NCBI GenBank assembly: GCA_964368135.1
Contig: CAYIZI010000001.1
Coordinates: 42,926-106,925 of the forward strand
Direction of reading: 5' to 3'
Origin: an uncultured Candidatus Saccharibacteria bacterium
Lineage (GTDB): Bacteria > Patescibacteriota > Minisyncoccia > 2-02-FULL-40-12
Length of the DNA stretch: 64,000 bases
Both the position numbers and the translations under genes were made by a program. The notes under the pieces were generated by a model. The model was not told where the DNA came from. It was given only the letters and a program-made list of their open reading frames with translations, and made no database searches. This document shows, piece by piece, positions 33,524-53,269 of this stretch. Every line of letters starts with the position of its first letter. Position 1 is the stretch's first letter.

Positions 33524-34279
33524 TCATAGAGTATGACCAAAATCAAGCGGATATATTCCGCCCGAAGAACGGACAAAACAAAACCGTATGACGGTATCAA
33601 CAAATTCCTGAACCCCTTCTTTATCACTTATCGGGTATTTGATAATTGAGCCGGCTCGAATCTCCTGCCACTCTTTATCAGTAATATCATCTGGCTTTAG
33701 AACCGGCCCGGGGGCAATTGAATTTATGAAAATACCTCTCGGCCCGAGTTCAACCGCCAAAGCCCGGGTCATGGCCGCGACTGCCGATTTAGTAACCACA
33801 TAGGGCAGATGATCCGCATAGATTTTTCCGATTGAAGTCCGGTCAGCCACGGTAATAATGTGTGAACCGGCTGGCATCAAAGGCAAACTCAACTGAACCG
33901 GCCAGAAAGTGCCTTTAATGTGGGCCGCGAAATTTCCATCCCAGTCCTTGTCTAAAATTTCTTCCAGCTTCACCGGCTTAAACATAGATGCCAGTAAAAT
34001 CAGGATATCCAATTTGCCAAACTTGTTTTTGATTTGCTTAACGGCTGTGACAACACTTTCCCGATCACTTACATCAACCTGAATCAATAAAACTTTTCTT
34101 TTAAATTTTTTGACTTTTTTGGCAGTCTGGTCAGCTTCTTCTTTTGATGACCGATAGCTGATCGCTAAATCCGCACCCAGCTCGGCCAAAGCCGCAGCAA
34201 TTTCCTGGCCAATCCGTTTTCCGCCGGTAATCCAGACAGTCTTGCCTCTTAGAGAGTGTCGTTTTAAAAATTCAGTCAT
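33524..34279 (-). CDS. SDR-family oxidoreductase
   Basis: GKTVWITGGKRIGQEIA Rossmann motif; 251 aa. Confidence 0.75.
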   Translation of the reverse strand: MTEFLKRHSLRGKTVWITGGKRIGQEIAAALAELGADLAISYRSSKEEADQTAKKVKKFKRKVLLIQVDVSDRESVVTAVKQIKNKFGKLDILILLASMFKPVKLEEILDKDWDGNFAAHIKGTFWPVQLSLPLMPAGSHIITVADRTSIGKIYADHLPYVVTKSAVAAMTRALAVELGPRGIFINSIAPGPVLKPDDITDKEWQEIRAGSIIKYPISDKEGVQEFVDTVIRFCFVRSSGGIYPLDFGHTL

Positions 34280-35579: not shown

Positions 35580-35580
35580 A

Positions 35581-37206
35581 TTAATCTTGGTTTTCCAAAA
35601 TTGGCTCGGTATTCAAAATATCCAAATACTCATCCCTTAATTGGTAAATATCGGCAAACGGATAAGAATCAACTAAATCGTATCTTTCAAATCCGGGCGT
35701 TCTTGAAACAAAACTCCATACCGAATCATTATCATCATGAGTCCGCATCACTATCCATCTTGCCCAATGGTCAGGCAGAGTTGTCGCCTCTTTCCAATAA
35801 TCGCCTGTTCCTTCATGGATGAATTTTTTCATCGGCATGCCGGACGAGAATATGATGGCGTCATGCGAAGCGGCGGATATTAATACAAATCCATCTTTAC
35901 CAGCGGCGTTTTGAGCCAGCCAGCCGCTTACTTCGGCGACGTTCTTCTGGCTTGAACCGACTCTGGCATCATCTATAGTAACCGCATCACCGCTTGAAAA
36001 CTGGAAAAAGAGAACAAAAAGAATCAATCCGATGATGACCGGCCTTAATTTTGAAACATAATGAATAAGATATCCGACAAATATCGCGATTGTCGGCATC
36101 AGCATTACTCCGTATCGGGCGTTAAACCAGGTGTCTCCTGATAAACCCTGAATAAATAATACCGAATGGCCAAGATAAAGAGCTAATATATTGAAGAAAA
36201 GGGGGGCCAACAAAACAAAAGTGGCAAAACGCACGCCTCGTCTTATATTCCCTGAAAACCAAAGAGCGACCGCCCCAACAAGACCCATAAGCGCTAAAAA
36301 CGCATTGGAATTATATGCCAAAGCGTAGAAATAGACTTTTAATGAAAAAAACCAATCCCCTTTTGTTGAAAGAACTCCGGCCGCTTCAAGCTGGGTCTGC
36401 TGGGTTCTGGCCGAATAAGGCCCGAAGGCAAAGTAAAGAGGATCGCCGAATATCAAAAGATTCCATAAAAACCACAATACTATGCCAAGCCCGGCCAGAG
36501 TAATGAATAAAATAAGCTTGCCCTCGGCCTGCTTATAGCCGTTTTTCTTCCATACGTAAAAAACAATCATCATTGAGGCTAAAACTAAAAGGAGCCAGCC
36601 GTCATACCTGACCAAGGTTGAAAGCATTATCCAAAAAGCTGACTTGACCAAGTCTACAACCTTGTCATCTTTGAACCACAGCATCAGATAATACGCACCC
36701 GCGGTCATAGCGGCGACAAGCGTTAATTCAGTCATGGCCGTTGACTGAAGATAAAGAACATTCAAATTTGAAGCAAATATCCCCACCCCGATTAATCTGC
36801 CGGTCATTTTAACTCCTATTTTTTCTAAGAACTTATAGATTATCAACCCGGTCAAAACAAAACCAAACATTGACCAGATCGTGCCGGCTAAGCCGGAATG
36901 CCACATAAAATCATTCCAGATTGTCAGGACCATAAGAAGGTGGGTAAGCGGCAGCCAGACGCTTCCCAACTGGGCAAACCCCGGCTTTAATCCCTCAACG
37001 ACCCGGCGGCCAATATCCAAGTGAGAACGGGCATCGTTATAAGCCAAGCTAAGCCCGTTCTGGAAATAAAACATGAAACTTAACACCGAGATAACTGATA
37101 GTATCGCCGCCACAATGGCAAAACCGTTTCTTTCAAAGAAAACTCCGACTCTATTTAGAGCATCGCTGCTTATATTGATTTTAATTACGCCCTTACTTTT
37201 GTTCAT
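35581..37206 (-). CDS. GT-C fold membrane glycosyltransferase (ArnT/PMT/YfhO-like), putative
   Basis: 541 aa, ~12 TM helices, first periplasmic loop with YNDARSHLDIGRR acidic motif. Confidence 0.45.
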   Translation of the reverse strand: MNKSKGVIKINISSDALNRVGVFFERNGFAIVAAILSVISVLSFMFYFQNGLSLAYNDARSHLDIGRRVVEGLKPGFAQLGSVWLPLTHLLMVLTIWNDFMWHSGLAGTIWSMFGFVLTGLIIYKFLEKIGVKMTGRLIGVGIFASNLNVLYLQSTAMTELTLVAAMTAGAYYLMLWFKDDKVVDLVKSAFWIMLSTLVRYDGWLLLVLASMMIVFYVWKKNGYKQAEGKLILFITLAGLGIVLWFLWNLLIFGDPLYFAFGPYSARTQQTQLEAAGVLSTKGDWFFSLKVYFYALAYNSNAFLALMGLVGAVALWFSGNIRRGVRFATFVLLAPLFFNILALYLGHSVLFIQGLSGDTWFNARYGVMLMPTIAIFVGYLIHYVSKLRPVIIGLILFVLFFQFSSGDAVTIDDARVGSSQKNVAEVSGWLAQNAAGKDGFVLISAASHDAIIFSSGMPMKKFIHEGTGDYWKEATTLPDHWARWIVMRTHDDNDSVWSFVSRTPGFERYDLVDSYPFADIYQLRDEYLDILNTEPILENQD

Positions 37207-38764
37207 TTTTTAAGAAAAATAAACTAACCATTAATGATAAAGTCACGGCTATTACTAAAGCTGTCATCATCTGATGATACTCTTGAGCGGTTAGGTATTG
37301 GCTGGCATATCTTTGGAATATAAACGACTTGGATTTATTCTTTTTCAATAAATCAAAATTTCTCTCATAAGTGAACTTTTCTTCTTTTCCTGACACCTCT
37401 TCAAGAGAAAGGACCTGCGCTTGCGGAGGATTAGTATCAGAAGTTATTGCTCCAAGAACATTAACCCAAACTGAATAGCTTACTAAAACAATAAATATTA
37501 TGCCGAATAAATAATTTTTCCTGAATTTAGTAAGAGCGAGTGAAAGGCCTATCCCTCCCAAGGCATAAGACGGAATCAGATATCTTGAACCAAATGCCCA
37601 CCCACCCCAAGGATCTCCCCAAAGAGAATAAAGAATTATATTAAATCCAATAGTTGCCAAAATTAAATTAGCGGCGGATCTATTTAACTTATACAAATAA
37701 GCAAAGCCCAAAATGCTTAAAAGAATAACCGGCGTGAACCAGACAATTCCCCTATCCGGACTTATGAAGTGGATATAAAATCCGTTAAGTAAATTCCTGG
37801 TTTTGAAAAATCCGACTGCTGTTTTCTCTTTATGGTAAGTTTTCTGTAGATTTAATAACTTGCTTATTTCTGATTGGGTTGGTAAACCTTTTTCATCTAT
37901 GGCCTCGACTGATTGAAGCGTACCGGGCAACTGGAATGGGTTGCCGGTAGAAGCCTGGTTAAACCATAGAAATAAAACGATGGGGGGGATAACGGCAAGT
38001 AGGGTTAAAAACCCGAGTATGTTGAAATTAATCTTTAATTTGAATTTTTCTTTTTCAATCCAGATTATTCTGGCCAAGGCAAAAACTCCAAGCGGAATCA
38101 TAAAAAATATGTTCGGGTTGTCCACCACGACCGAAAAGGCGATTAAAAACCATATCAAAGCCACTGACCAAAGATTATTCCAGCGGATAAGCGCATAAAT
38201 ACCCAATAGAATCAAAAAAGTTGATATATGATGCTGGTATAAAGTGGCGGCATAAGCAAAAGCCGGCGAAGCAAAAGCAAAAACAAGAGCCCCGATACTG
38301 GCCGCCAAAGGATTAGACCCTAACCTTATCGCTATCAACCTCACAAAGATTATATTCAAAAGAGCGAATAAAGCTGCGGTTGAAAATGCTCCCACTTGTG
38401 ATAATCCAAACTCTCTTCCTATCACGTAACCAGGTATAGCCAAAAAAGAAACACCCGGATTAAAAAGAGAAACATAACCGCCATTAACATAAGCAACATC
38501 TGGGGTAGTGAATTTGGCTAATGGCACTGAAAACTGAAAAGACTTATCCTCAACTAAAGAATAAGTCAAAGCAAATCTGCCCCTTTCCGGAGATAATTCA
38601 AAAGGCGCGCTTTCTGTAGGTTCATTAGGCTTCCACTGAGAAGTATTTAAGGCATCTTTGTTTGGATTTCCGGGAATGCCGCGCAAACCAAGAATTAAGA
38701 TAGCGGCGCAAAATAGTATAAACAATATGGCCGGAATTAATTGTAATATTTTAATTTTATCCAT
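37193..38764 (-). CDS. GT-C fold membrane glycosyltransferase (ArnT/PMT-like), putative
   Basis: 523 aa polytopic; loop-1 motif SPERGRFALTYSLVEDKSF. Confidence 0.45.
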   Translation of the reverse strand: MDKIKILQLIPAILFILFCAAILILGLRGIPGNPNKDALNTSQWKPNEPTESAPFELSPERGRFALTYSLVEDKSFQFSVPLAKFTTPDVAYVNGGYVSLFNPGVSFLAIPGYVIGREFGLSQVGAFSTAALFALLNIIFVRLIAIRLGSNPLAASIGALVFAFASPAFAYAATLYQHHISTFLILLGIYALIRWNNLWSVALIWFLIAFSVVVDNPNIFFMIPLGVFALARIIWIEKEKFKLKINFNILGFLTLLAVIPPIVLFLWFNQASTGNPFQLPGTLQSVEAIDEKGLPTQSEISKLLNLQKTYHKEKTAVGFFKTRNLLNGFYIHFISPDRGIVWFTPVILLSILGFAYLYKLNRSAANLILATIGFNIILYSLWGDPWGGWAFGSRYLIPSYALGGIGLSLALTKFRKNYLFGIIFIVLVSYSVWVNVLGAITSDTNPPQAQVLSLEEVSGKEEKFTYERNFDLLKKNKSKSFIFQRYASQYLTAQEYHQMMTALVIAVTLSLMVSLFFLKNEQK

Positions 38765-40010
38765 TATATTGGTGATTTATCCTGCTATACGACTGAATAC
38801 CTATATCCTTTGAACTATTAGGGTTTTTGACTATCTGTTTATATAAACTATTCATACTATCGGCAACTTCCCTCCAAGAATTTCCAAGACTAAAGTTCAC
38901 GCAGTTTTTTTGCATATCTTTTATAAATTTGGAGCCATTATTTTTAAGGACAAAATCTATTTTCTTAGCTAAGGCTTTGTGATCACGAATCCCGATGCAG
39001 TATCCGTTTATTCCATTCTTAATCAAATATGTCAGGGCTTCATTATTAGAAACAATACATATTAAACCTTGACTTAAACCTTCATTTATAACATTTGGAT
39101 AAGCTTCTTTAATAGACATCAGAATCATCATCCCGGCCTTTTTAATTATATAGTACTTATCTATGCCTTTTATCAGCCCAGTAAATACCACTCTGTCTTG
39201 TAAACCTAATTTTTCTATAAGCTCCTGGAGGTATTTTTTATAAGAATTATCATCTTCTGGCCCTACAATCACAAACTTAAGATTTTTAGGCAGTATGGCC
39301 AGGGCTTTAATAGCGGTTTCGTAATTTTTAATTGGGTGGATCCTGCCTACCTGAATTATGTAATTACCTAATCCCTCAACTATTTTCTTTATTTCGGGAC
39401 TGGCCTTAGTTTCAACATCTTCAAAGGCCTCGCTTTCAATCCCGTTCTCAATAACCACAACAAGTTCTGGTTTTACTCCTTTTTCAATTATTTCAGATTT
39501 TTCTAATTCAGAAACAGCCCTGACCGCATCAACAACAAGATTTATAAAAAGTATTCCCGCTGTATAATGGTAGACTATTTTTATTATCTTCTGGATGGGA
39601 TTGAATATGGACCAGTCTGGAGTAAAGCCGCCGTGAGGAGTTAAAACCAAAGCAAAATTCTTTTTGCCTAAGATTTTTAGGAACAAAGCTTTAAACAAAA
39701 TGTGGAAGTGCGGAAAGATATTAAAATTGTGAAGGCAAACAAGGTTTGTATTTTTCCAGTTTATACTTGGCAAATAGCCATACCATTTAAAAGGATATCT
39801 TCTAATCTTGATGCTTCTAACTTCGTCTGTGTTAGGCAGATAATTTTTATTCGTAAACGTGTCTTTAGAAGTGTGGATAGTAACATCCCATCCTTTTTCG
39901 GCAAGAACGCTGTAAGTCTCCAAAATATTTGTCTCGGCGCCGGCTACAACCGGATAGAAGTACTTTTGTACTATATCAATATGACCAAGTTTTTCTGATT
40001 TTATATTCAT
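38757..40010 (-). CDS. Glycosyltransferase family 4 (GT-B)
   Basis: E-x7-E region ...EAYPNVINEGLSQGLICIVS...; GT4 C-terminal domain pattern. Confidence 0.7.
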   Translation of the reverse strand: MNIKSEKLGHIDIVQKYFYPVVAGAETNILETYSVLAEKGWDVTIHTSKDTFTNKNYLPNTDEVRSIKIRRYPFKWYGYLPSINWKNTNLVCLHNFNIFPHFHILFKALFLKILGKKNFALVLTPHGGFTPDWSIFNPIQKIIKIVYHYTAGILFINLVVDAVRAVSELEKSEIIEKGVKPELVVVIENGIESEAFEDVETKASPEIKKIVEGLGNYIIQVGRIHPIKNYETAIKALAILPKNLKFVIVGPEDDNSYKKYLQELIEKLGLQDRVVFTGLIKGIDKYYIIKKAGMMILMSIKEAYPNVINEGLSQGLICIVSNNEALTYLIKNGINGYCIGIRDHKALAKKIDFVLKNNGSKFIKDMQKNCVNFSLGNSWREVADSMNSLYKQIVKNPNSSKDIGIQSYSRINHQYNG

Positions 40011-40019
40011 GATAATTTT

Positions 40020-40961
40020 TTATTCAGTTTGTTTATAAATTAATGTTTTGGATGACCTGTGAGGCATAAATAGAGGATCAAATTTTGAAACTTTTAATGT
40101 CGTAATCCTATTGATACATACCTCCAATAAATACAAGACGATCAAAACAGGATTCCTGAAAAAGCTTGATAAAACAGACTTAACGACCAACCCGAACGGC
40201 GGGCTATATTCCTTTTTAATCCAGGCTGGTTCAAAATACTTACAAAATGATCTTCGGCCGCTTATGAATTTAGTGCACTGCTTTTTCCTATCTTTGAAAT
40301 TGGTAACATTCCTAAAATAAAATCTTGCGCGATGTTGTTTAACCATTTTTAAATTCAACTGTTTTAACCTGAAATAAGTGTAAACGTCTTCTGGAAGGTC
40401 TAATGGCCATGTGAGATTTTGGGTAAAGTTCCTTGATAAAATTTTGGCTGAATTGCAACAATAAATATTATCGCCTCCTCGCCACTCACTGAACATCTTA
40501 CTTTTCATACGACTACCTTGAGTCATTACCTTTTCAAATAAACCAACGGGTTTAACCGGCTCTGCATTGCCGACTGCAATGCCCAGATTTTTAATACTTG
40601 ATTTCTTAAATGGATGCACCAACTCATCAATAACTCCTGTGTCGGCGGGCAAGGCGTCGCCTTCCACTATCATTAATAAGTCGCCGGAATATTTTTTAAG
40701 CATCAAGTTCTGCATAGCTTGCTGGCCTGATCTTTTTTTAAAGATAAACATTTTAATTATCTTAAATCTATTTGCCAAAGATTTAACAATATCTACAGAA
40801 TTATCTGTGGTGCCATCAAAGAAAACCATAATTTCTTTAAGCATATAATTATCCTGTTCCTGTTTAACCAGCCTCAAAATAAGCTCTTTAATATTGGCTT
40901 CCTCGTTGTAAACCGGAATGCCTATAGAAACCGTCAATTTTCTTGTTTTTTTCTGGTTCAT
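40020..40961 (-). CDS. Glycosyltransferase family 2
   Basis: VSIGIPVYNEEANIKELI N-terminus, D-x-D region, GT-A fold. Confidence 0.7.
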   Translation of the reverse strand: MNQKKTRKLTVSIGIPVYNEEANIKELILRLVKQEQDNYMLKEIMVFFDGTTDNSVDIVKSLANRFKIIKMFIFKKRSGQQAMQNLMLKKYSGDLLMIVEGDALPADTGVIDELVHPFKKSSIKNLGIAVGNAEPVKPVGLFEKVMTQGSRMKSKMFSEWRGGDNIYCCNSAKILSRNFTQNLTWPLDLPEDVYTYFRLKQLNLKMVKQHRARFYFRNVTNFKDRKKQCTKFISGRRSFCKYFEPAWIKKEYSPPFGLVVKSVLSSFFRNPVLIVLYLLEVCINRITTLKVSKFDPLFMPHRSSKTLIYKQTE

Positions 40962-40962
40962 T

Positions 40963-41871
40963 TTATTTATTTATTTGCTTAGTCGACGCATCAACATCCC
41001 AAACAGGATCAATAACTTTCTTTTCCGGTTGTTTATTTAATCTGGTATAAATAAACACACCCATATAAGAAACCAAAGATATAGGATGCCTAATAAATTC
41101 CTCTAAAAAGCTTAAAACTAATGCCTTGATTGGGATTTTATATTCGGCTGCTACTTGCTGACCAAAATAAGACACCATTTCTTTTAGAGCATATTGGTAG
41201 CGGCTGCTTGGACCCACCTGGTCGCTAATTTTTTGGGGACAGCGGATTTTAACAATAGCTTTGTCTGCTAAGGCAAACCTTCCGCCTAATCTCCTGTTTT
41301 CCAAGTACATATACATATCGCCGGTTACAATATTTTCGCGAAGATTAAACCTTTTAAAATGCTCGGTTCTAAATGCAAGACAACGACCGCTGGCCAATAG
41401 ATGGTTGCTCTTGCCTTTTAATTTTAAGACCATGTGGTCAATAACCCTGACCATACTTGCCATTGCCGACTCAAAAAAAGTTTCAGGCGGCAAAGGCAAA
41501 ACTCTTGCCCCAACCATGGTTGCTTCTGGATTACTCTGAAAAACAGACAGTATTTCTTTTAAAGTCCCGGGTTCAAAGGTTATATCGTCTTGAGTGGAAA
41601 CATAAATATCGCTATTGCATACATCAACCGTCTGCTTAATTTTTTTAAGCTGGCTCCCCTCTTTTTCATTCCAAATCAATTCAACTCCCAATTTGGAAAG
41701 CTCGGATTTAATTTCAGGCGATATCGGCGTGCGGTCAGCGCAAATTATAAATCTGAAGTTGCCCACTCCTTTTGAATTTCTAAGACCTTTGGCGGTGTCC
41801 GAAAGAGATTCGCCTCCGTAGCAAGTGGGTATAGCGACGGTTAATGTCAATTGTTTTTCTTTGTTATCCAT
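40963..41871 (-). CDS. Glycosyltransferase family 2-like
   Basis: LTVAIPTCYGGESL N-terminus, QDD acidic motif. Confidence 0.6.
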   Translation of the reverse strand: MDNKEKQLTLTVAIPTCYGGESLSDTAKGLRNSKGVGNFRFIICADRTPISPEIKSELSKLGVELIWNEKEGSQLKKIKQTVDVCNSDIYVSTQDDITFEPGTLKEILSVFQSNPEATMVGARVLPLPPETFFESAMASMVRVIDHMVLKLKGKSNHLLASGRCLAFRTEHFKRFNLRENIVTGDMYMYLENRRLGGRFALADKAIVKIRCPQKISDQVGPSSRYQYALKEMVSYFGQQVAAEYKIPIKALVLSFLEEFIRHPISLVSYMGVFIYTRLNKQPEKKVIDPVWDVDASTKQINK

Positions 41872-43150
41872 TTTTGAAATGTTTGGTTTGTTCTTCTCTT
41901 AACTTATCTGATAAACGACCGTCCGGCCGCTCAACATCGGCATATGTAATTACTTCATCTTGTTTTATATCTCTCTTTAAAACACAGCCGTCCGTTAAAC
42001 CCATCGACAAGAGATTTTCTTTCAAACTGACATCATAATTTTCAATAACTCCATAACAGGTGAATCCGCCGATTCCGTCCAAAACTTCTCCTTTCTTAAG
42101 ATCTTTTTTGGCTAAAGTAATGACATCACAAAATGGCCTGCCGACTGGAGCCAAGGTGGCGTCTTTCATTAATACGGCTCTGGCCACACTGGCTGGTGTC
42201 TCAATAGGACTTAAATGATATGGCCTGTAAAATGTATATACTGGGCCATTGCCCATCTTATAGACCTTCATATACCTCTGTTTTATCGGGTGCTCGCTAT
42301 AAGCCAAGACAAAAACTCCAAAACTTGGTTCGGCTCCCAAGATATAATCCACTATCGGCCTGTCTTTTATTTCTTCAAACGGAAATAAATTAACGGCTTG
42401 CTCCACTCTCTCACAGCGATGGCCGAACATTCCTCTTTTTCCGACTCCAAACCCGACGGCATTGCCGATTGTGGCCATTTCCATGGCTATCTTTGTGCCA
42501 TCGGCAAAAGAAGTAATCATTTTCGGCCTCTGGAAATGGGCTTCGGCAAACGCCTTCTGGGTCTCCGGAGTTCTCCTCGCATCAATCAAGCTTTTTATAT
42601 TGCCCGCTAATATGGGTTTAAACCCCCACATTTTTACTTCCCTAATCAAATTCATTAAAACCGCAGGCTGGTCTCCGTCTCCTTGGGTATAGATAACTCC
42701 GGCAGCGTCAGCGTACTTTTTTAATATCGGCCCCAAAGTTGCATCAAGCTCGGCATTTATCAAAACGATGTGCTTTTTATTTTTTATCGCCTCCATCGCC
42801 ACTTTTGCCCCAAATTCAACTTCTCCGGTAGCATCAACAATTGCATCAATATAGGAAGAATTGCATAACAGCATTGGATTATCGGTGATAACATATTCTC
42901 CTGACTTAATAGCCGAATCTAAATCATTTTGATTATCCGCGCGCCTAATCGGACTGGCATTAAGTTCTTTCAGCGCCTCCTCCGCCGTATCTATAGTCCT
43001 ATTGGAAACTGCGCTCAACTTCATCCCCGGAGTTGAAGTAATAAGCTGAAGCATAAAACCCTTAGCCGCAAAGCCGGCGCCAACAAGGCCTACTCTTATG
43101 AGTTGGCTGTTGTTCTTTAATTCCTCTAATTTTTTATCAATGATAATCAT
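41864..43150 (-). CDS. NAD(P)-binding oxidoreductase with C-terminal SAF domain (COG4091-like)
   Basis: Rossmann motif VGLVGAGFAAKG, SAF-like C-terminal domain; sits inside a sugar-modification cluster. Confidence 0.5.
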   Translation of the reverse strand: MIIIDKKLEELKNNSQLIRVGLVGAGFAAKGFMLQLITSTPGMKLSAVSNRTIDTAEEALKELNASPIRRADNQNDLDSAIKSGEYVITDNPMLLCNSSYIDAIVDATGEVEFGAKVAMEAIKNKKHIVLINAELDATLGPILKKYADAAGVIYTQGDGDQPAVLMNLIREVKMWGFKPILAGNIKSLIDARRTPETQKAFAEAHFQRPKMITSFADGTKIAMEMATIGNAVGFGVGKRGMFGHRCERVEQAVNLFPFEEIKDRPIVDYILGAEPSFGVFVLAYSEHPIKQRYMKVYKMGNGPVYTFYRPYHLSPIETPASVARAVLMKDATLAPVGRPFCDVITLAKKDLKKGEVLDGIGGFTCYGVIENYDVSLKENLLSMGLTDGCVLKRDIKQDEVITYADVERPDGRLSDKLREEQTKHFKNG

Positions 43151-43159
43151 ATTTATTTA

Positions 43160-43690
43160 TTAGCTTTTAAAATCCGGCCAAGATGAATCTTTTTCAGAAA
43201 CATGCTCTACCGCTACCGGCCAATCAAAATTAAATTTCTTATCATTAAATCTAATTCCTTTTTCACATTCGGCCGTAAACGGCGCCGTATATAAATTTAT
43301 AAATTCAACATCGTCTCCCAGGGTTAAAAATCCGTGGGCAACGCCTTTAGGAACATACAGTGATTTCATATCTGAATCGCTAAGCTTAAAACCCTGCCAC
43401 TTCAGGTATGTCGGAGAGTTAGGTCTTACATCAACAATAACTTCATAGATAGAACCCCTGGTAACTCTGGTCAACTGGGCCATCTCTTGAGGTTTAATCT
43501 GATAATGGATTCCTCTGATTGTGCCTTTATTTTTTGTAAAAGAAATATAGCCCTGAACAATTTCATTGCTTATATTTACTTTTTTAAACTCATCCTTGCC
43601 GAATATGCGGGTTAAATTGCCTCGGTCATCCTCTCGCTTGGCAAGTTGAATTAAATACGAACCTTCAATGTTTGTTTTTATAAATTCCAT
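43160..43690 (-). CDS. dTDP/CDP-4-dehydro-6-deoxy-sugar 3,5-epimerase (RmlC-like cupin)
   Basis: RmlC cupin pattern ...RGIHYQ...YVPKGVAHGF... Confidence 0.75.
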   Translation of the reverse strand: MEFIKTNIEGSYLIQLAKREDDRGNLTRIFGKDEFKKVNISNEIVQGYISFTKNKGTIRGIHYQIKPQEMAQLTRVTRGSIYEVIVDVRPNSPTYLKWQGFKLSDSDMKSLYVPKGVAHGFLTLGDDVEFINLYTAPFTAECEKGIRFNDKKFNFDWPVAVEHVSEKDSSWPDFKS

Positions 43691-43691
43691 A

Positions 43692-44723
43692 TTATTTTTT
43701 AACTTTCCAATTAAGCATATTGTCCAACTGGCCAGTTTCCATCAGGTATTTTATTTCTTTTAATCTGGTGAATGGATTCGACTCAAATACCTCCTTGGTC
43801 ATGGAAATTTTTTCAAATATTTGTTTTAACTGCTCGGCCCCGTCTTTAATGCTCCACTGGCATTTAAATCCGGGCAGTTTAGAATATATTTTGTCAAAAT
43901 TTACTCTGTAACTTCTGTTGTCGCTGCCGGCCTGGTCCATTGTAATTTTGCAATTGGGGAATACGTCAGATATTACTTTGGCAATATCTCTGACCTGATA
44001 ATTCCCTTTGTTGCTCCCAACATTGAATACTTGATTATGGACGACTTCTTTAGGCGCTTTAGCGGCGCAAATCATTGCCTGGCAAATATCAAGAATATGA
44101 ACCAATGGCCTCCAGGGAGTACCGTCGCTATTTAGTTTTATCTCTTTATCAACCCAGGCCAAGCCACTAAGGTTATTCAATACGATATCAAATCTCATTC
44201 TTGGAGAGGGTCCGTAAGCCGTGGCATTTCTTAAAAATACGGGCGAAAAATTATCATCGGCCAGTTTAAATAATTCTTTTTCCACCAATATTTTGCATTT
44301 AGCATAAGCTGTCTGGGGATTGACGGCAGACTCTTCAGTCACCAAATCATCTTTGGCAATGCCGTAAACGCTGCACGAAGACGAATATATAAACCTTTTG
44401 ACACCGGCTTTCTTGCATTTTTCAGCCAGTGAAACCGAGCCATGATAGTTTATGGAATAGGTTAAATCAGGGTTAATTTCGCCGAGAGGATCATTAGACA
44501 GCTCGGCCAGATGAATAACAACGTCAAATCCTCTTAAATCATCTTCGGTCACATCACGGGTATCTTTGCGCAGAATTTCCGGCTGTTTGCCAAAACCGTT
44601 ATAAAGCTGGCCGGACTTATAAAATCCGGCATCTAAACCAACCACCTCATATCCTTTTTCGATCATTTTAGGAGCTAAGACAGAACCGATATATCCGTCT
44701 GCTCCGGTTATTAATATTTTCAT
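43692..44723 (-). CDS. NAD-dependent nucleotide-sugar epimerase/dehydratase (GalE-like extended SDR)
   Basis: MKILITGADGYIGS, SSSCSVYG and YAKCK (YxxxK) motifs; start trimmed to the ATG at 44723. Confidence 0.75.
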   Translation of the reverse strand: MKILITGADGYIGSVLAPKMIEKGYEVVGLDAGFYKSGQLYNGFGKQPEILRKDTRDVTEDDLRGFDVVIHLAELSNDPLGEINPDLTYSINYHGSVSLAEKCKKAGVKRFIYSSSCSVYGIAKDDLVTEESAVNPQTAYAKCKILVEKELFKLADDNFSPVFLRNATAYGPSPRMRFDIVLNNLSGLAWVDKEIKLNSDGTPWRPLVHILDICQAMICAAKAPKEVVHNQVFNVGSNKGNYQVRDIAKVISDVFPNCKITMDQAGSDNRSYRVNFDKIYSKLPGFKCQWSIKDGAEQLKQIFEKISMTKEVFESNPFTRLKEIKYLMETGQLDNMLNWKVKK

Positions 44724-44725
44724 AA

Positions 44726-45439
44726 TTACCAAACCTTCCAAAGGGCCTGGCCTTTTTGCCAAAGCTCCTCCAGAATATTTTTATCTCTTAGCGTATCCAG
44801 ACACATCCAAAATCCTTTGTGGCGATACGCGGCTAATTTACCGTCTTCGACCAACTGCTTCATTGGTTCTTGTTCAAAAACAGTTTCATCTCCTTGGATG
44901 TAATCAATTACTTTCGGGTCAAGAATAAAAAATCCGCCGTTTATCCACGAACCCCCATTTTTTGGTTTTTCCCTGAAACTTGATACCAATCCATTCTTGC
45001 CCTCAATTTTTAAAATACCGAACCTCCCTTCCGGCTGAACTGCTGTTACGGTGGCTGGTAAATTATGGCCATTATGGAATTCTAAAAGTTTTTTTAAATC
45101 AACATCGGCAACACCGTCGCCATAAGTAAGGAAAAACTGGCCATTACCAAGATAATCTTTTATTCTCTTTATCCTGCCGCCGGTCATGGTTTCCTGTCCG
45201 GTATCAACAATGGTTATATTCCAATTTTCATTATCAATCCCTTTGCTAAAATACTCCTTTATCATGTCGCCTTTGTAGCCGGCACAAATGATAAAGTCGT
45301 TAAAACCCTGGGTTGAAAATATTTTCATAACATGCCAAAGCATCGGTTTGCCGCCGATTTCAACCATTGGCTTAGGCCTGACCGAAGTTTCCTCGGCTAT
45401 CCTGGTGCCATAACCGCCTGCTAAAATTACCACTTTCAT
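44726..45439 (-). CDS. rfbF: Glucose-1-phosphate cytidylyltransferase
   Basis: MKVVILAGGYGTRIAEETSVRPKPMVEIGGKPMLWHVMKIF... Confidence 0.8.
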   Translation of the reverse strand: MKVVILAGGYGTRIAEETSVRPKPMVEIGGKPMLWHVMKIFSTQGFNDFIICAGYKGDMIKEYFSKGIDNENWNITIVDTGQETMTGGRIKRIKDYLGNGQFFLTYGDGVADVDLKKLLEFHNGHNLPATVTAVQPEGRFGILKIEGKNGLVSSFREKPKNGGSWINGGFFILDPKVIDYIQGDETVFEQEPMKQLVEDGKLAAYRHKGFWMCLDTLRDKNILEELWQKGQALWKVW

Positions 45440-45452
45440 ATCATTCATATAG

Positions 45453-46364
45453 TTAATTATTCTTACAAAAATCTTTGACGTAATTTATGTCTTCCTGGGA
45501 CAGCTTCGGCCAATACGAACTCACCAGCCACTTGCCGCCTAACATCACTGAATTACTGTTAAAAGCTTCCTGCGTCTTCAGATTGGACAGACCAATGGCG
45601 TGACCAAAACCGTGAATCATTTCTCTTATCAAGGCGGATTCTATTAATTTCCCTTCATCTGCTAAACTGCCTAAATAAACATTACTGTTGGCTGCATAGT
45701 CAAATAAGGCCGTAAAAATATTCAGCATAAAATGATCCACGGTTCCATTGCTATATATCTTTTGATACGAAACATCAGTATAATCATAATCTTCCCCATT
45801 CTTAAATTTAAAGGCCGGGTCAAGAATAAAGTTAACCGTATTTACGGTTCCTTGGTAATTATTGAATAAATCAATACCCAAAGCATCTTCCCACTGTTTT
45901 TCGGCATAACCGAGAAGCTCGTTAAGCCGCTGGCGGCTATAACCCAGTTCAAATAATCTCACATCAACATTCCCTAATTTGTAGGTTAGTTGAATTGAAC
46001 AATGAGCCGGAGGCGGCAGAGGCGTAGGCGTGGGAGTTGGAGTTGGGGTCGGAGTTGGAGTTGGGGTCGGTTTCGGAACTGGTTTTGGTTTTTGCGTAGA
46101 ACTTGGAGTAGAAACCGGCCCAATCGGCGATTCAGACGGTTCTGACGTAGCCGATGGACTTAAAATAGGAGTCGGCGTCGGAGTTGATTCTTCAAATAAT
46201 TGGGCAATGAGGGCCGCCGGGTTATTATCAGTATTCATTATCTTACTTAAACCAAAAGTAAATCCGACTGAAATAATCAATGCAAAAGCAGGAACTAATA
46301 CAGACAGTGGGATGAAACCTGACTTTATGCTTATTATTTTTTTGTTTTTGTTGGTTTTATTCAT
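45453..46364 (-). CDS. Membrane-anchored secreted protein with a Pro/Thr-repeat linker and a degenerate zincin-like domain
   Basis: N-terminal TM, KPKPVPKPTPTPTPTPTPTPTPTPLPPP linker, C-terminal REMIHGFGHAIGL resembling a metzincin motif without its first His. Confidence 0.5.
   Translation of the reverse strand: MNKTNKNKKIISIKSGFIPLSVLVPAFALIISVGFTFGLSKIMNTDNNPAALIAQLFEESTPTPTPILSPSATSEPSESPIGPVSTPSSTQKPKPVPKPTPTPTPTPTPTPTPTPLPPPAHCSIQLTYKLGNVDVRLFELGYSRQRLNELLGYAEKQWEDALGIDLFNNYQGTVNTVNFILDPAFKFKNGEDYDYTDVSYQKIYSNGTVDHFMLNIFTALFDYAANSNVYLGSLADEGKLIESALIREMIHGFGHAIGLSNLKTQEAFNSNSVMLGGKWLVSSYWPKLSQEDINYVKDFCKNN
46033..46068. repeat. Perfect 18-nt tandem duplication built from GGAGTT/GGGGTC hexamers; encodes the (TP)n linker
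   Basis: ggagttggagttggggtc x2, read directly; coding, not a CRISPR array. Confidence 0.7.
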
Positions 46365-46370
46365 ATTTTT

Positions 46371-49300
46371 TTACTTACTGATTATTGATAAAAACGCCTT
46401 GCTTGTTTTACTCCAGTCAAAATTACTGGCCCATTTTACTGCTTCCTGGCTCATCCGGTCGCGGAGATCCTTGTCTCGAATTATCGTTAAGATACTCTCC
46501 GCGAATGCATCGCTATTGCCGTAAGAAACAAGGCGGCCAGTTTCCATATTTTTCACAGAATCCCTTAAGCCCGGTACGTCAGAAGCCACTATCGGGGTGC
46601 CGCAAGCATTGGCTTCAATCGTGGTAATGCCCCACCCTTCCATAAACGAAGGATTTACAAATACCCAGGCTTTTTGAAAAAGTTCTATTTTCTCTTTTTC
46701 AGAAACCTTTCCTCTAAATACTACTTTGCCGTTAAGATTAAGTTCAGAGGCTAATCTTTTTAACGAATTTTCTTCTTCGCCGCTGCCGACAATGACCAAC
46801 CGGGCATCATCAACTTGTCTTATAACCTTTTCAAAAGCTCTTACTAAAACATCAACCGACTTATAGGCTTTAAGCCTTCCCAAATAAAGAATAGTCGGTT
46901 CCGGACTCTTTCTCCCAAGAGTTAAATTTTTAGAATTGACTCCGGGATGGACTATTTCAATTCCTTTCTTAGTTCCAAGGCCAAAACTCTGAATATCTTT
47001 TTTGCTTGATTCCGAAACCGTAATAAACTTTACATTCCGGTAGACTATGGGCATCAAATCCTTCTCTAAAAATATTGCCAGCTTTGCTAAGGGTTTAGGC
47101 AAAGAATGCCTGAAGACTTCCTGATGGATATGATGGATAAGACAATAAATCGGCTTCCTTGAATAGATGGGCGTAAAAAAAGGAATGCCGTTATGACAAT
47201 CAACTATGATGTCATATTTGCCTCTGAATTGGGTCAGGTAGTAAATAAAAGCCCAGAGGTAAACAAAGTAAAACCCGCCTCTTCTTATGATTTCAACCCC
47301 ATCTATAATTTCTCTTCTCTTTGAATAACTGTCATTGCCGCAAAAAACAGTGACCTGGTGTCCATCCTTGACCCACTGTTTGGCGATTTCGTGGACATAA
47401 AGTTCTGCTCCGCCACCATATATATGCCTTGTGTCTCTCCAGTTAAATATAAGAATCCTCTTGCCGAGCTTCGCCATCGGAGCCTCGGTTTCAATAGGTC
47501 TAAACGCATCTTTCAAATCAATAATGCCCCTCCAGACAAACTTAAGCCTGCCCTCAAGTACGTGGAATAAATAAACCAGGCCCAACCCAAAGATGCTGGC
47601 CCATAAAATAACATTGACTATCTCTTCGACGCTGCCGTGATTTAGGATTATGCCGATAGACATAAACAATGAAGCAGTCATTGAAATAATCGGGAATATA
47701 AATTGCCTTTTAGCCAAATGATAGACGACTATAGAATTTGAAATCGTGAAAACAGTAAGCGCGAGAGTGTAAATATTAAGATAAGGCAGAATGGCCAGCG
47801 TCTTGGAGCCAAAAAGTATCGGCACGGTTAAATTGCCCAGAGGGCCCAAAAAAATAAACCCGGCTAATGACAAAAGGACGGTTGAACCAACCAGCAGCTC
47901 AAATGTCTTTTTAGTATTTCTCTTTAATCCCTCGTCTCGGCCAATCAAAGTAATCATAAATATATTGGGCAGAGAGCCGAGAAAATATATCATCTTGCCG
48001 ACAAGCGATATTAGAGTGTACTCGCCGGCCAAACGCGGCGATAAAAAGTGTTTGACTAAAATAATGTCAATGCTTAAAAATATCGTCGCCGACATTAAAG
48101 TAAGTATTGAGGCGTAGAAAAACCTGCCCGGAAACTTATGGTTTTTAGTCTGAATAAAATCTTCAGAATGCCTTGAAACAGCCAAAACAGAAGCCATTGA
48201 AGCAACCGCTATGGATATCGGAATTGAAAGATAAACTAAATGATTTAACCCATACCAGGCGAAAAGAGCCGCCGCAATAAACTTACTTACTGATTCAAAA
48301 AGAATAACGAAAGCAACACTGGTAAAGTAAAGATTGCCATTAAGAAACCCCCTGTTTGCCGACGCAATCACTCCCAAAGTCAGAACCGGAGTGAACATAA
48401 AAAGGATGGACTGGCTGCTTATGTTAAAGAAATTAGAAAGGAATGAAACTGAAACTATCCACATTACCGATATGCCTAAGGCAATAGGAATTGCTTTGTT
48501 CAAAGTTGATTTGAGAAACGCAAGCGCCGACCCCTCACCCTTTTCAACGGCCAGATGAGCAGTCTTATGGTTTACCGTTGAGGAAACCGCGCCCATAAAT
48601 ATCGCCGCTACTGACCATAAAGTATTAACCAGTATCACTAGACTAAGTTCTTCAAAAGACAAAACCCTTCCCAGGAAAGCGTTAAAAAGAAAATTAAGGA
48701 AATTGGCGAACATCATCGCCGCAATCATAAGCGCCGCTCCCGAAAGAGCATTTTCGGTCAGCGATAACGGCAAAAATTTATTAGTGGTTTTTTTCAGCCA
48801 AGAATCTTTCTTTATAAAATTAAGAGTCAATTCAGGTTTCGGGGCCGGTCCCGATTTTATCGTCCCTAAAACAGGTAAGGGTTTTAATTTCTTTAAATGC
48901 AGGCCGTGCTTGGTCTTTTCCCAGAAATGCGGCTTAATGAAAAGCTGGTAAGTTGCCATTACCGCGGCAATACTCATAAAGAACCAATAGAAAGGTATTA
49001 AAAAGACATATTTTATTATTGGCCAGTGGCCCCTTTTGGCACAGCCGATCATGTAATAGTAAAAATAGAGAAAATTCCCGAAGACCAGAGAAAAAACGGC
49101 GATATAAAAGACCGGGGTCGGATATATTGATTCTATGGTCGGACCGACAACGGAACGCAGGGCGAAATAAGAGATCGTCATAAACCACAAAATTGGATTT
49201 ATAAGCATAAAGACAATTTTGCCGCCGATGTTAAGCTGGAAAAGAAAAGTATGGATGCCGCTTTTTTTCAAAAATTCCATCGGCTTTCTCATATGAACCA

Positions 49301-51047
49301 GATATGTCTGCATATAGCCCTTAATCCACCTTGACCTCTGCCTTATCCAGTTCCAAACCTGACTATTTGCTTCTTCAAGAGTTATTGAATCAATAATCGC
49401 CGTGTTGAAACCCTGTTTAAATAACCGCACCCCCAAGTCGGCGTCTTCGGTAACGTTGAAGGGATCCCAACCCTTAAGATTCCTTAAGTCGGCGGTCCGG
49501 AAATGGTTGCTGGTGCCGCCAAGAGGAATTGAAGTATTAATTGACTGAAGACCCGGCAGAATGATTTCAAACCACAACGAGTACTCGGCCGTAAAAAGCC
49601 GGGTCAAAAGATTTTGATTGGTGTTATAATAATTGAGTTTTGCCTGAAGACATTTAACTTTTTCTGGCACTCTTTGAAAAGCCAAATAAGCTTTCTTAAG
49701 CTGCTGGGGTTCGGGCATATCTTCGGCGTCGTAAACGACAAGATACTCACCCTTGGCTGAATTAAGACCATAATTGCAGGCCTTGGGCTTGGTCTTAGGC
49801 AAAGAGTGAGGAACGATTACTATCCTTACGTAGCTTGGCAAATCTATTGACCTGGCAGTATCTATTGTCTCTAAGTCGTTTTCTTCTAAAAGCAGCTGGA
49901 CATCCAATTTATCCTTAGGCCACTCCAATTTGCTTATTGAATTTAAAAATTTTGGAAGAACCGCTGATTCCCGATAAAGCGGGCAGAGAATCGCATAAAC
50001 CGGCAGAGAACTTTCGTCTATCCGGGAAAGTTCCTCATCAGTAAAACTAAGTTCCGGAGGATTATGCAGACTTTTTGTGATAAGGAATAAATTAAACAAA
50101 ACGTCAAAAAAGTATAGAGAGCTTAAAACAGCCATTAAAGCTATGGCCGTATAGAGCGGGAAAAATAAAAATCCGGCAACAGCCAAAATAACGGATAGAA
50201 ATATTAAAAATTTCTGGCTGGCGGTAAATGTGATTAGGGCCGAGGTTTCACTGTCAAGATTAGAATGAGTAATGAACCTTCTGCCTTTATGGGCCATTCC
50301 GGCGCCGATCATACTTGATTCGTCTTGCGGCGGTATTTGAATCGGCTTTTTCTTTTTTAACTTGTTGGCCAACGCGTTAGTGCCTATTTCCCAACTGGCT
50401 TTTATGACATTGATTTTTGATTCACCGGAATGCCTCTTTTCAAAATCTATATTAACGGTGGCTATTTCATGGCCGGCGTATCTGGCGTTAACCAAGAATT
50501 CCAGATCAAAGGTCCACTGGGACGGATTAACTGCTATTTCCTTGGTTATCTGTTTTTTAAAAACTTTTAACCCTGACTGGACATCGCACTTAAGCCCGTG
50601 AAGAATCCGGCCAAAAACAAAATTAAAACCTTTGCTGGCCAGCTTTCTTAAGGGGCTTATGCCTTTATAACGTCTATTGGCCACAACTACGCCGGCGCCA
50701 TCTCTAATTTTTCTCACCATTTCCGGTATCGCTTCCGGCGGGTACTGCAGGTCAGCGTCAATCATCCCGACAGTGTCATACTTGGCATAATCAAAACCCT
50801 CAAGAATAGAAAAGGCCTTACCCTTTTTGCCTTTCTTCAAATGACAACTAATTGGATATTCGTCGGCCAGATTATTGGCAATCTTAACCGTATTATCGGT
50901 TGAGTGGTCATCTATTGTGACTATTTCATACTCAATACCGCCTTTTTTTAAAGCATTATCAATCCTCTTGACTAACTTCTGGATATTTCCTTCTTCATTA
51001 AAAGTAGGAATAATTATTGATACTTTTTCAGTGTTTTTGGCCTCCAT
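46371..51047 (-). CDS. 1558-aa multi-domain glycan-assembly fusion: GT2 (DPM1-like) + processive QxxRW GT2 + Wzx/MOP-like flippase domain + GT4
   Basis: aa 8-230 GT2 (IIIPTFNEE, DDHSTDN, DADLQYPP); aa ~345-715 cellulose-synthase-like GT2 (DAEDMP, QRSRWIKG, C-terminal TMs); aa ~755-1175 12-14 TM MOP-like; aa ~1195-1558 GT4 (E-x7-E: FMEGWGITTIEANACGTPIV). Confidence 0.75.
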   Translation of the reverse strand: MEAKNTEKVSIIIPTFNEEGNIQKLVKRIDNALKKGGIEYEIVTIDDHSTDNTVKIANNLADEYPISCHLKKGKKGKAFSILEGFDYAKYDTVGMIDADLQYPPEAIPEMVRKIRDGAGVVVANRRYKGISPLRKLASKGFNFVFGRILHGLKCDVQSGLKVFKKQITKEIAVNPSQWTFDLEFLVNARYAGHEIATVNIDFEKRHSGESKINVIKASWEIGTNALANKLKKKKPIQIPPQDESSMIGAGMAHKGRRFITHSNLDSETSALITFTASQKFLIFLSVILAVAGFLFFPLYTAIALMAVLSSLYFFDVLFNLFLITKSLHNPPELSFTDEELSRIDESSLPVYAILCPLYRESAVLPKFLNSISKLEWPKDKLDVQLLLEENDLETIDTARSIDLPSYVRIVIVPHSLPKTKPKACNYGLNSAKGEYLVVYDAEDMPEPQQLKKAYLAFQRVPEKVKCLQAKLNYYNTNQNLLTRLFTAEYSLWFEIILPGLQSINTSIPLGGTSNHFRTADLRNLKGWDPFNVTEDADLGVRLFKQGFNTAIIDSITLEEANSQVWNWIRQRSRWIKGYMQTYLVHMRKPMEFLKKSGIHTFLFQLNIGGKIVFMLINPILWFMTISYFALRSVVGPTIESIYPTPVFYIAVFSLVFGNFLYFYYYMIGCAKRGHWPIIKYVFLIPFYWFFMSIAAVMATYQLFIKPHFWEKTKHGLHLKKLKPLPVLGTIKSGPAPKPELTLNFIKKDSWLKKTTNKFLPLSLTENALSGAALMIAAMMFANFLNFLFNAFLGRVLSFEELSLVILVNTLWSVAAIFMGAVSSTVNHKTAHLAVEKGEGSALAFLKSTLNKAIPIALGISVMWIVSVSFLSNFFNISSQSILFMFTPVLTLGVIASANRGFLNGNLYFTSVAFVILFESVSKFIAAALFAWYGLNHLVYLSIPISIAVASMASVLAVSRHSEDFIQTKNHKFPGRFFYASILTLMSATIFLSIDIILVKHFLSPRLAGEYTLISLVGKMIYFLGSLPNIFMITLIGRDEGLKRNTKKTFELLVGSTVLLSLAGFIFLGPLGNLTVPILFGSKTLAILPYLNIYTLALTVFTISNSIVVYHLAKRQFIFPIISMTASLFMSIGIILNHGSVEEIVNVILWASIFGLGLVYLFHVLEGRLKFVWRGIIDLKDAFRPIETEAPMAKLGKRILIFNWRDTRHIYGGGAELYVHEIAKQWVKDGHQVTVFCGNDSYSKRREIIDGVEIIRRGGFYFVYLWAFIYYLTQFRGKYDIIVDCHNGIPFFTPIYSRKPIYCLIHHIHQEVFRHSLPKPLAKLAIFLEKDLMPIVYRNVKFITVSESSKKDIQSFGLGTKKGIEIVHPGVNSKNLTLGRKSPEPTILYLGRLKAYKSVDVLVRAFEKVIRQVDDARLVIVGSGEEENSLKRLASELNLNGKVVFRGKVSEKEKIELFQKAWVFVNPSFMEGWGITTIEANACGTPIVASDVPGLRDSVKNMETGRLVSYGNSDAFAESILTIIRDKDLRDRMSQEAVKWASNFDWSKTSKAFLSIISK

Positions 51048-53266: not shown

Positions 53267-53269
53267 TAT

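Follow-up and report, generated by a model that had tools for sequence, protein, structure and literature searches.

A conserved Patescibacteria gene locus, fixed in its frame and variable in its centre, as a candidate for envelope-glycan assembly

A fixed frame and a variable centre

We analysed a window of 64,000 nucleotides from an uncultured Candidatus Saccharibacteria bacterium (assembly GCA_964368135.1, contig CAYIZI010000001.1), in which a preliminary description made from the sequence alone had pointed to a cell-surface glycosylation cluster at positions 35581-51047. We found that this cluster is one allele of a lineage-wide locus that has a fixed frame and a variable centre. The frame consists of a giant four-domain fusion protein and, on the far side of the centre, two polytopic GT-C glycosyltransferases of 523 and 541 amino acids (aa) followed by a secreted or anchored protein, p416. 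What the analysis shows directly is which genes are present, their folds and family matches, and the synteny and variability of the locus; we lean towards reading positions 34329-51047 as this genome's version of a Microgenomates-type envelope-glycan assembly locus.

Scanning one genome per species, we detected the 541-aa family in 378 or more species genomes of Patescibacteria, most of them Microgenomates, and compared 80 of the 378 loci, with 10-kb flanks, gene by gene with the window. The 541-type protein is 59-69% identical to the window protein throughout the 80 loci. The 523-type gene lies directly upstream of it in 66 of 69 eligible loci, a p416 homologue (42-70% identity) directly downstream in 58 of 71, and a fusion-like open reading frame (ORF) no more than 10 kb upstream in 45 of 53. 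The centre between the fusion and the GT-C pair spans 1.8-6.5 kb and 2-7 genes, and its content differs between genomes. Among 148 ORFs of such centres, a Pfam census recovered mainly GT2 (53) and GT4 (22) glycosyltransferases, followed by CE4 deacetylases (21), PIG-L deacetylases (10), methyltransferases (10), APH-type kinases (8) and FemAB-like acetyltransferases (6).

The limits 35581 and 51047 coincide exactly with ORF boundaries and all genes between them are on the minus strand, as first described. The number of genes had been given as twelve; we counted eleven closely packed ORFs of more than 150 aa, which is also the number that the preliminary description itemises, and the spacing between neighbours ranges from an overlap of 14 nt to a gap of 9 nt. 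The domain calls were borne out by Pfam, NCBIfam and PDB matches, by predicted folds for the GT-C pair and through related proteins for the putative flippase, and the assignment to cell-surface glycosylation held up. The conserved unit is one gene longer than the original cluster, 34329-51047, as it takes in p416. Neither promoters nor terminators were enriched relative to shuffled sequences in our scans, which set no boundaries. The features are as follows.

34329-35579, minus strand: p416, secreted or anchored protein, third conserved partner of the GT-C pair
35581-37206, minus strand: predicted GT-C-fold glycosyltransferase of 541 aa with a C-terminal soluble domain of about 120 aa; family without a Pfam or NCBIfam model
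37193-38764, minus strand: predicted GT-C-fold glycosyltransferase of 523 aa; family without a Pfam model
38757-40010, minus strand: GT4, variable centre, AT-rich (PF00534, 1.3e-29; GC 0.343, z -2.3)
40020-40961, minus strand: GT2, variable centre, AT-rich (PF00535, 1.3e-17; GC 0.352, z -2.1)
40963-41871, minus strand: GT2, variable centre, weak match (PF13641, 1.7e-10)
41864-43150, minus strand: NAD(P)-dependent oxidoreductase with DRL_cat and SAF domains (PF21135, 1.6e-46, and SAF; PDB 3upl, 1.3e-69)
43160-43690, minus strand: RmlC-like sugar-nucleotide 3,5-epimerase, cupin fold (PF00908, 7e-53; PDB RmlC, 1.5e-33)
43692-44723, minus strand: GalE/Cj1427-like short-chain dehydrogenase/reductase (SDR; Pfam Epimerase, 5.5e-44)
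44726-45448, minus strand: RfbF, glucose-1-phosphate cytidylyltransferase, first of the four cassette genes (TIGR02623)
45453-46364, minus strand: membrane-anchored protein of 303 aa with a Ser/Thr/Pro linker (from translation, transmembrane prediction and composition)
46371-51047, minus strand: four-domain membrane fusion protein of 1558 aa (Pfam, NCBIfam, PDB, motifs and transmembrane segments)
46374-47450, minus strand: fusion residues 1200-1558, GT4 (Pfam)
47478-48770, minus strand: fusion residues 760-1190, putative divergent MOP/Wzx-type flippase (transitive homology)
48873-50240, minus strand: fusion residues 270-725, BcsA-like processive GT2 with flanking transmembrane helices
50328-51047, minus strand: fusion residues 1-240, polyprenyl-phosphate sugar synthase of the DPMS/GtrB/ArnC type

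Several observations on the related loci concern single members. The 523-type protein falls into two classes by identity with the window protein, about 30-36% and 42-56% (L006-L085), and this enzyme may track the variable glycan. In one contig (L071, CAINNK010000019.1) the first set is followed by additional copies of the 541-type gene and of p416, suggesting that this end of the locus was duplicated locally. Sortase genes occur shortly downstream of p416 in L004 (13342-13875) and L005 (13914-14456), and in L005 a gene for a fibronectin type III (fn3) protein separates p416 from the sortase. The window contains neither kind of gene at this position. Third-party submissions of metagenome-assembled genomes (MAGs) give many contigs with the locus (L011, L012, L016, L022 and others) the title Gammaproteobacteria, Bdellovibrionales, Pseudomonadales, Bathyarchaeia or Eisenbacteria, probably through mislabelling or mis-binning.

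The four-domain fusion protein

The GT2-GT2-flippase-GT4 layout previously proposed for the giant protein was borne out, with approximate residue limits for the domains and a putative, divergent flippase. The N-terminal GT2 (residues ~5-215) has its best PDB matches exclusively among polyprenyl-phosphate glycosyltransferases, namely the Pyrococcus DPMS (5mlz, 6e-33), ArnC (1.8e-21) and GtrB (2.9e-20), and carries the DADLQ signature (MIDADLQYPP at residue 97). Its NCBIfam labels (ArnC, PgfS, AglJ and Dol-P-hexose transferase) all score under the equivalog cut-offs. By its sequence this domain is thus predicted to be of the DPM1/GtrB/ArnC type, and the DPM1-like polyprenyl-phosphate sugar synthase that had been postulated for the GT-Cs of the cluster appears to be present beside them as the N-terminal part of the fusion.

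The second GT2 aligns with BcsA over residues 280-660, across transmembrane and glycosyltransferase regions (PDB, E 1.6e-6), and matches CelA (1e-16) and PgaC in NCBIfam. A TED motif (~533-535) and QRSRW (570-574) lie between transmembrane helices at 270-324 and 607-696, so that TED and QxxRW are arranged as in a processive membrane synthase, to which class we assign the domain on these motifs.

The middle domain has about 12 transmembrane segments and was provisionally assigned through its relatives: among 35 members of its family compared with Pfam, 13 matched Polysacc_synt, 6 Polysacc_synt_3 and 3 MatE. A profile search of PDB with the family returned spurious matches to G protein-coupled receptors only. 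The family comprises 1999 proteins, including stand-alone forms of ~420 aa and other fusions. The four domains are repeatedly found fused in proteins of 1530-1611 aa, and several genomes carry the fusion split into a protein with the two GT2 domains and one with the flippase and GT4 domains.

The GT-C pair and p416

Neither the 523-aa nor the 541-aa protein has a Pfam match at E<=10, a PDB sequence match or anything useful in NCBIfam. Homologues at 50-68% identity number 1926 for the 541-aa and 1129 for the 523-aa family; nearly all are labelled hypothetical, and their source labels include Woesebacteria, Gottesmanbacteria, Amesbacteria, Levybacteria and "Patescibacteria group", names that place the organism among Microgenomates-type members of the candidate phyla radiation. 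By exact protein match, the window lies on contigs of the Hainich groundwater metagenome (Hain_H51, 127 kb and 82 kb) that were obtained from the 0.1-um filter fraction. The structural neighbours of the predicted 541-aa fold are Pmt4 (score 21.5), ALG12 (20.9), AglB (20.5), PglB (19.4), ArnT (19.2) and AftB (18.9), and those of the predicted 523-aa fold ALG12 (22.2) and ArnT (21.0); AftA, AftD, PimE and Emb are, like AftB, also among the neighbours of the cluster GT-Cs. Foldseek concurs on the GT-C fold for both. Two methods thus agree that the modelled structures are GT-C at fold level, a level that does not distinguish the subfamily.

In each family, an acidic residue just before the first outer-loop helix of the structure models is invariant: in the 541 family D58 (30 sequences), as part of YND58..SHL within the first outer loop, and in the 523 family E56 (31 sequences). 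The two proteins had been called PMT/ArnT-like, after protein O-mannosyltransferases (PMT) and ArnT. This stands at the level of fold and fails at that of family membership, as neither matches Pfam PMT, PMT_4TMC, PMT_2 (PF13231) or STT3. Profile comparison by hhalign of each GT-C family with the family of the PMT encoded elsewhere in the genome, and of the 541 with the 523 family, gave non-significant probabilities of ~1%, which count as weak negative evidence given shallow alignments (Neff 2-2.6). In one homologue (P0155), a 523-type GT-C is fused to a GT2. The two proteins have a short motif in common, LWGDPWGGWAFGSRY (523 aa) and LSGDTWFNARYG (541 aa), which lies in a late loop whose model is poor, and this loop is the sole region that hhalign aligned between the families.

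The third partner, p416, has a conserved N-terminal domain of ~320 aa and a CarboxypepD_reg beta-sandwich. Its invariant residues are E152, E154, N155 and, in the motif GEFG, E251, and the N-terminal domain may be a glycoside-hydrolase-like TIM barrel. PDB sequence and profile searches with p416, and BLASTP against the neighbouring DUF4015 protein, returned nothing.

The CDP-sugar cassette

Four adjacent genes of the variable centre encode RfbF (TIGR02623, 357.6 bits against a cut-off of 300.25), an SDR, an RmlC-like epimerase (TIGR01221, 146.9 bits, slightly below the cut-off of 155.75) and the oxidoreductase with DRL_cat and SAF domains. These identities, like those of the two GT2 and one GT4 transferases beside them, agree with the first annotation in both Pfam and NCBIfam. 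The SDR starts at an ATG at 44723 in an ORF that opens at TTG 44762, and its best PDB match is 6vo6 (1e-33), which we take to be Cj1427, a C4-dehydrogenase.

A route to a CDP-6-deoxyhexose had been proposed for this cassette and does not hold. We found no CDP-glucose 4,6-dehydratase in the cluster: its sole SDR scores 21.1 bits with TIGR02622 against a cut-off of 278.45. The 4,6-dehydratases of the SDR family carry an Asp/Glu or Asp/Lys pair at the position of their acid/base residues, where this protein has SSSCSVYG. As there is no 4,6-dehydratase, the "6-deoxy" part of the proposal falls. We propose from these sequence features that the SDR is a C4-dehydrogenase and not a 4,6-dehydratase, and that the DRL/SAF oxidoreductase acts as the 4-keto reductase of the cassette. 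RfbF would then form CDP-glucose, the Cj1427-like SDR would oxidise C4 to give CDP-4-keto-glucose, and RmlC-like 3,5-epimerisation followed by DRL/SAF reduction would yield a CDP-L-hexose that retains its 6-hydroxyl. A product of this kind, keeping O6, is most likely. No paper describing a CDP-glucose C4-dehydrogenase route was found in our literature search.

The complete RfbF-SDR-RmlC-DRL cassette is present in 5 of the 80 related loci, and homologues of the DRL/SAF oxidoreductase (48% identity) are encoded next to rfbC on Deinococcus plasmids. On pDFI2 of Deinococcus ficus, the gene order is rfbF, lhgO (L-2-hydroxyglutarate oxidase), SDR, rfbC and SAF protein, and the SDR, which adjoins lhgO, is 56% identical over its full length to that of the window. 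Cj1427 re-oxidises its bound NADH with alpha-ketoglutarate to give L-2-hydroxyglutarate, and its step is followed by a 3,5-epimerase and a C4 reductase (PMC10680097). The lhgO gene beside the Deinococcus SDR fits this chemistry because its product recycles L-2-hydroxyglutarate. The plasmid cassette (L086, 3313-8308) lies next to three GT4 genes and a gene for a beta-helix protein. D. ficus is a cultured host, which makes pDFI2 a tractable system for finding the CDP-sugar product and the chemistry of the shared cassette testable in vitro. We also considered the DRL protein as a DXR-II enzyme of isoprenoid synthesis and rejected this on context, as RmlC, SDR and RfbF are its constant neighbours.

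The remainder of the variable centre

The three soluble transferases of the centre vary between genomes. The GT2 at 40020-40961 has between 0 and 6 paralogues per related locus, homologues of the GT2 at 40963-41871 occur in some loci at 22-51% identity, and the best NCBIfam match of the GT4 at 38757-40010 is Agl16 (3.5e-51, under its cut-off). The preliminary description had noted by eye that this GT4/GT2 core is AT-rich. A GC profile bears this out: among 153 sliding windows of 3.2 kb, positions 38001-41200 are the most AT-rich (GC 0.354, z -3.0) and the compositionally most deviant, with the largest tetranucleotide distance (z 3.2). The stretch belongs to the section of the locus whose content is variable. 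Of all ORFs in the window, the peptidyl-tRNA hydrolase gene pth (27100-27720, minus strand) has the lowest GC (0.330, z -2.7). Low GC alone is thus an unreliable sign of foreign origin here, and we rejected horizontal transfer on GC alone at the level of single genes, pth being even more AT-rich than the genes of the core.

The anchored protein at 45453-46364 has one N-terminal transmembrane helix (residues 10-43), a linker in which 71% of residues 56-118 are Ser, Thr or Pro (DNA ~46011-46193), and a C-terminal globular domain without a Pfam family; a tandem repeat lies at 46033-46070. The anchor and the linker agree with its first description as a secreted Pro/Thr-repeat protein. No homologue of the protein, including its C-terminal domain, was found in the 80 related loci; it is specific to this genome's version of the locus, and the absence counts against the part in O-glycosylation first suggested for it. 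The public gene call shortens the protein to 169 aa and adds an antisense ORF of 164 aa (46030-46524, plus strand; GVGVGV...) over the repeat, which looks like an artefact of the TPTPTP-coding repeat.

Surrounding genes and an unlinked PMT

The genes around the cluster are ordinary housekeeping genes. A type IV pilus gene set (52703-58503, minus strand) lies directly upstream and includes three ORFs with N-terminal methylation motifs (52703-53179, 53691-54209 and 55760-56275), a PilC-like T2SSF protein (56208-57278) and a PilB-like ATPase (57271-58503); genes for GNAT, MsrA and DUF192 proteins are located between this set and the fusion gene. Downstream of p416 are a short-chain dehydrogenase (33524-34279, minus strand) and a DUF4015 putative glycosyl hydrolase (32262-33482, minus strand). 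In the 80 related loci neither gene comes after p416: homologues of the DUF4015 protein are lacking altogether, and weak homologues of the dehydrogenase (28-31% identity) are found in L015, L021 and L023, only upstream of the GT-C pair.

One further GT-C gene had been assigned to the PMT family, correctly:

13007-14404, plus strand: homologue of protein O-mannosyltransferases of the PMT (GT39-type) family, lacking a MIR domain (PF02366, 1e-53; PF16192, PMT_4TMC, 1.2e-43)

It encodes the motif FDEVHFGKF, with the DE of loop 1, and is unlinked to the cluster, 21 kb away on the opposite strand. Its closest named relatives (49-66% identity) are labelled Parcubacteria/Yanofskybacteria and the closest relative overall is 79% identical. 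These Parcubacteria-type labels, set against the Microgenomates labels of the cluster GT-Cs, suggest either loose MAG labels or a different history of the PMT. We counted 2065 PMT homologues in Patescibacteria MAGs, already annotated in databases.

The glycosylation system had been called not yet described for this kind of organism. Our literature search found no paper describing the locus or the PMT in Patescibacteria, so that the conserved locus, its two GT-C families and p416 without a curated model, and the four-domain fusion are not described in the papers searched. The system is not special to this genome, as the locus is widespread and PMT homologues are already annotated.

Function of the locus and alternative explanations

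In the envelope-glycan reading, the fixed frame would be the machinery, made up of the fusion, the two GT-C transferases and the secreted, possibly hydrolase-like p416, and the variable centre would set the glycan chemistry, here through the CDP-hexose cassette, two GT2, one GT4 and the Pro/Thr-rich anchored protein. The cytoplasmic GT2 and GT4 enzymes, together with the processive GT2, would build a glycan on lipid or as an exported chain, and the DPMS-like domain would make a polyprenyl-P-sugar. The flippase domain would take lipid-linked sugars to the outer face, where both GT-Cs would transfer sugars onto an acceptor, and p416 would act on the product outside the cell. Use of polyprenyl-phosphate sugar donors by the GT-Cs is circumstantial, suggested by the DPMS/GtrB-like synthase predicted in the same locus. 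A wall-associated polysaccharide or a lipoglycan, and not a protein, is the most likely acceptor in view of the BcsA-like domain, the deacetylases frequent in sister loci and the serotype-like layout.

In favour of this reading stand the close co-directional packing of the genes, the synteny in 80 species genomes and the position of the compositionally deviant stretch in the variable part. Several points weigh against it. No deacetylase is encoded in this particular locus, nor is an initiating phosphoglycosyltransferase, which leaves the lipid-linked route incomplete as encoded. The middle domain of the fusion has no direct Pfam match at E<=10, and Glyco_hydro_cc was matched by only 3 of 30 p416 members, weakly (E 0.006). 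That a single protein should unite a synthase like BcsA, a flippase like Wzx and an enzyme like GtrB is odd, and the three may belong to different routes. We assume that 6vo6 is Cj1427, and donors, acceptors, step order and the identity of the sugar are what we infer.

Protein glycosylation, as first suggested, is possible and a serious rival, although we do not favour it and regard it as rather unlikely. A flipped lipid-linked sugar or oligosaccharide would be moved by the GT-Cs to S-layer proteins, type IV pilins or Pro/Thr-rich proteins, akin to archaeal Agl N-glycosylation or actinobacterial Ppm1/PMT O-mannosylation. The best NCBIfam labels of the GT4 (Agl16, 3.5e-51) and the N-terminal GT2 (AglJ, 4.7e-22) point this way, although all Agl matches are far under their cut-offs. 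A Ser/Thr/Pro-rich anchored protein is encoded within the cluster, but is missing from the 80 related loci, and pilin genes lie 1.6 kb upstream (52703-56275), yet the sampled parts of related loci contain no pilus gene and L004, the one related locus readable upstream, has other genes there. The genome does encode a true PMT, though 21 kb off and on the other strand, and sortase genes follow p416 in two related loci. Among structural neighbours of the GT-Cs, Pmt4, STT3, AglB and PglB are equally close; by sequence, however, the cluster GT-Cs lack Pfam PMT, PMT_2 and STT3 matches and reach only ~1% with the PMT-family profile, and no WWDYG-type motif was seen in either translation by eye, no pattern search having been made. 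The processive BcsA-like domain and the frequent polysaccharide deacetylases suit a polymer better.

We consider it improbable that the genes serve separate pathways, in which the BcsA-like domain would export a simple beta-glycan, the DPMS-like domain and the GT-C pair would modify an unrelated target (for example a membrane lipid, peptidoglycan or a teichoic-acid-like polymer) and the variable genes would make a third product. Synthases, Wzx-type flippases and GtrB-type loaders are normally alternatives to one another, the fusion is split in several genomes, and the flippase domain also occurs alone or in other fusions. Set against this are the same gene set in the same order across 80 species-level genomes, the repeated fusion of all four domains and the joining of a 523-type GT-C to a GT2 in P0155. 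Least probable is a standard Wzx/Wzy-dependent locus for O-antigen or capsule, with one of the polytopic proteins serving as a polymerase (Wzy-type) or a ligase (WaaL-type). A putative MOP/Wzx-type flippase domain is present and the conserved flanks with a variable, glycosyltransferase-rich centre resemble such loci, but the polytopic proteins are GT-C, with no Wzy- or WaaL-like fold, and no cluster protein matches Wzy_C in Pfam. Neither the cluster nor the 25 commonest Pfam families of the 148 centre ORFs include an initiating phosphoglycosyltransferase or a chain-length regulator. A Wzy polymerase had been named as the finding that would speak for an O-antigen locus, and none was found in the cluster.

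The envelope-glycan reading has a bolder extension, which we put forward as a speculation. The GT-Cs, fusion and p416 would belong to a near-universal, Patescibacteria-specific pathway in which a polymer is extended or decorated outside the cell from polyprenyl-phosphate sugars, by the logic of mycobacterial lipomannan/lipoarabinomannan (LM/LAM) and arabinogalactan synthesis, here in an ultra-small epibiont, with a CDP-L-hexose supplied via an alpha-ketoglutarate-dependent C4-dehydrogenase. If so, variation of the centre between strains would make the surface diverse, in the service of host attachment or of escape from phages. Patescibacteria are tiny bacteria that live attached to host cells, and to our knowledge almost nothing is known of their cell envelope. 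With a frame kept at 59-69% identity in at least 80 species genomes and detected in 378, the locus is a strong candidate for the source of their main surface glycan. Its hypervariable centre can be used to study how the surface differs between strains, and the locus flags two GT-C families and a secreted partner beyond any curated model.

Comparison with known systems

Among synthase-dependent exopolysaccharide systems (BcsA, PgaC/IcaA, NodC and hyaluronan synthase), we find the same membrane-embedded GT2 with TED and QxxRW and flanking transmembrane helices, and further points of likeness are the frequent CE4 deacetylases of sister loci and a secreted partner that may be a hydrolase. The locus differs in having no PilZ or other known accessory proteins and in the fusion of this GT2, whose BcsA match is just 1.6e-6, to three other activities.

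Archaeal Agl N-glycosylation clusters encode AglJ/AglD, AglR, AglS, AglB and Agl16, and, as this locus appears to do, combine a Dol-P-hexose-type GT2, a Wzx-like flippase, two GT-C-type enzymes, GT4 and GT2 transferases and sugar-nucleotide genes. The Agl16 and AglJ matches are, however, far below the equivalog cut-offs (174 against 575 and 78.7 against 325 bits). Compared with the GT66 oligosaccharyltransferases STT3, PglB and AglB, the C-terminal domain of the 541-aa protein measures only ~120 aa, the protein has no STT3 match in Pfam and the organism is a bacterium.

As proposed here, the cassette resembles in its logic the Cj1427/Cj1430/Cj1428 pathway of Campylobacter jejuni, in which an SDR C4-dehydrogenase, a cupin 3,5-epimerase and a reductase act in turn and no dehydratase is involved (PMC10680097). 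The lhgO gene of the orthologous Deinococcus cassette matches the half-reaction of Cj1427 from alpha-ketoglutarate to L-2-hydroxyglutarate. Unlike the GDP-heptose pathway of C. jejuni, with its SDR reductase, the cassette here would act on a CDP-activated hexose supplied by RfbF and has a reductase of the DRL/SAF type, and it lacks lhgO in the window.

In the three-component systems (GtrB/GtrA/GtrC, ArnC/ArnEF/ArnT, CsbB/GtcA/YfhO and the pentofuranose systems of PMC11127046), polyprenyl phosphate is loaded with one sugar by a GT2, and a flippase and a GT-C acting outside the membrane complete the set, as they appear to do here. The differences are a putative MOP/Wzx-type flippase domain with about 12 transmembrane segments in place of a small GtrA or ArnEF protein, two GT-Cs of families without a Pfam model, and the fusion of the GT2 to a processive synthase, a flippase and a GT4. 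Actinobacterial Ppm1-dependent pathways (PMT, and the LM/LAM and arabinogalactan GT-Cs PimE, AftA/B/D and Emb) similarly bring together in one genome a Ppm1/DPMS-like synthase, a GT4, several GT-Cs and a true PMT. Here, by contrast, the cluster GT-Cs are not of the PMT family by sequence, the PMT is unlinked, and nothing points to mannose, the nucleotide sugar encoded being CDP-linked. All parts of the locus belong to known enzyme classes, and its logic resembles that of the three-component and mycobacterial GT-C pathways.

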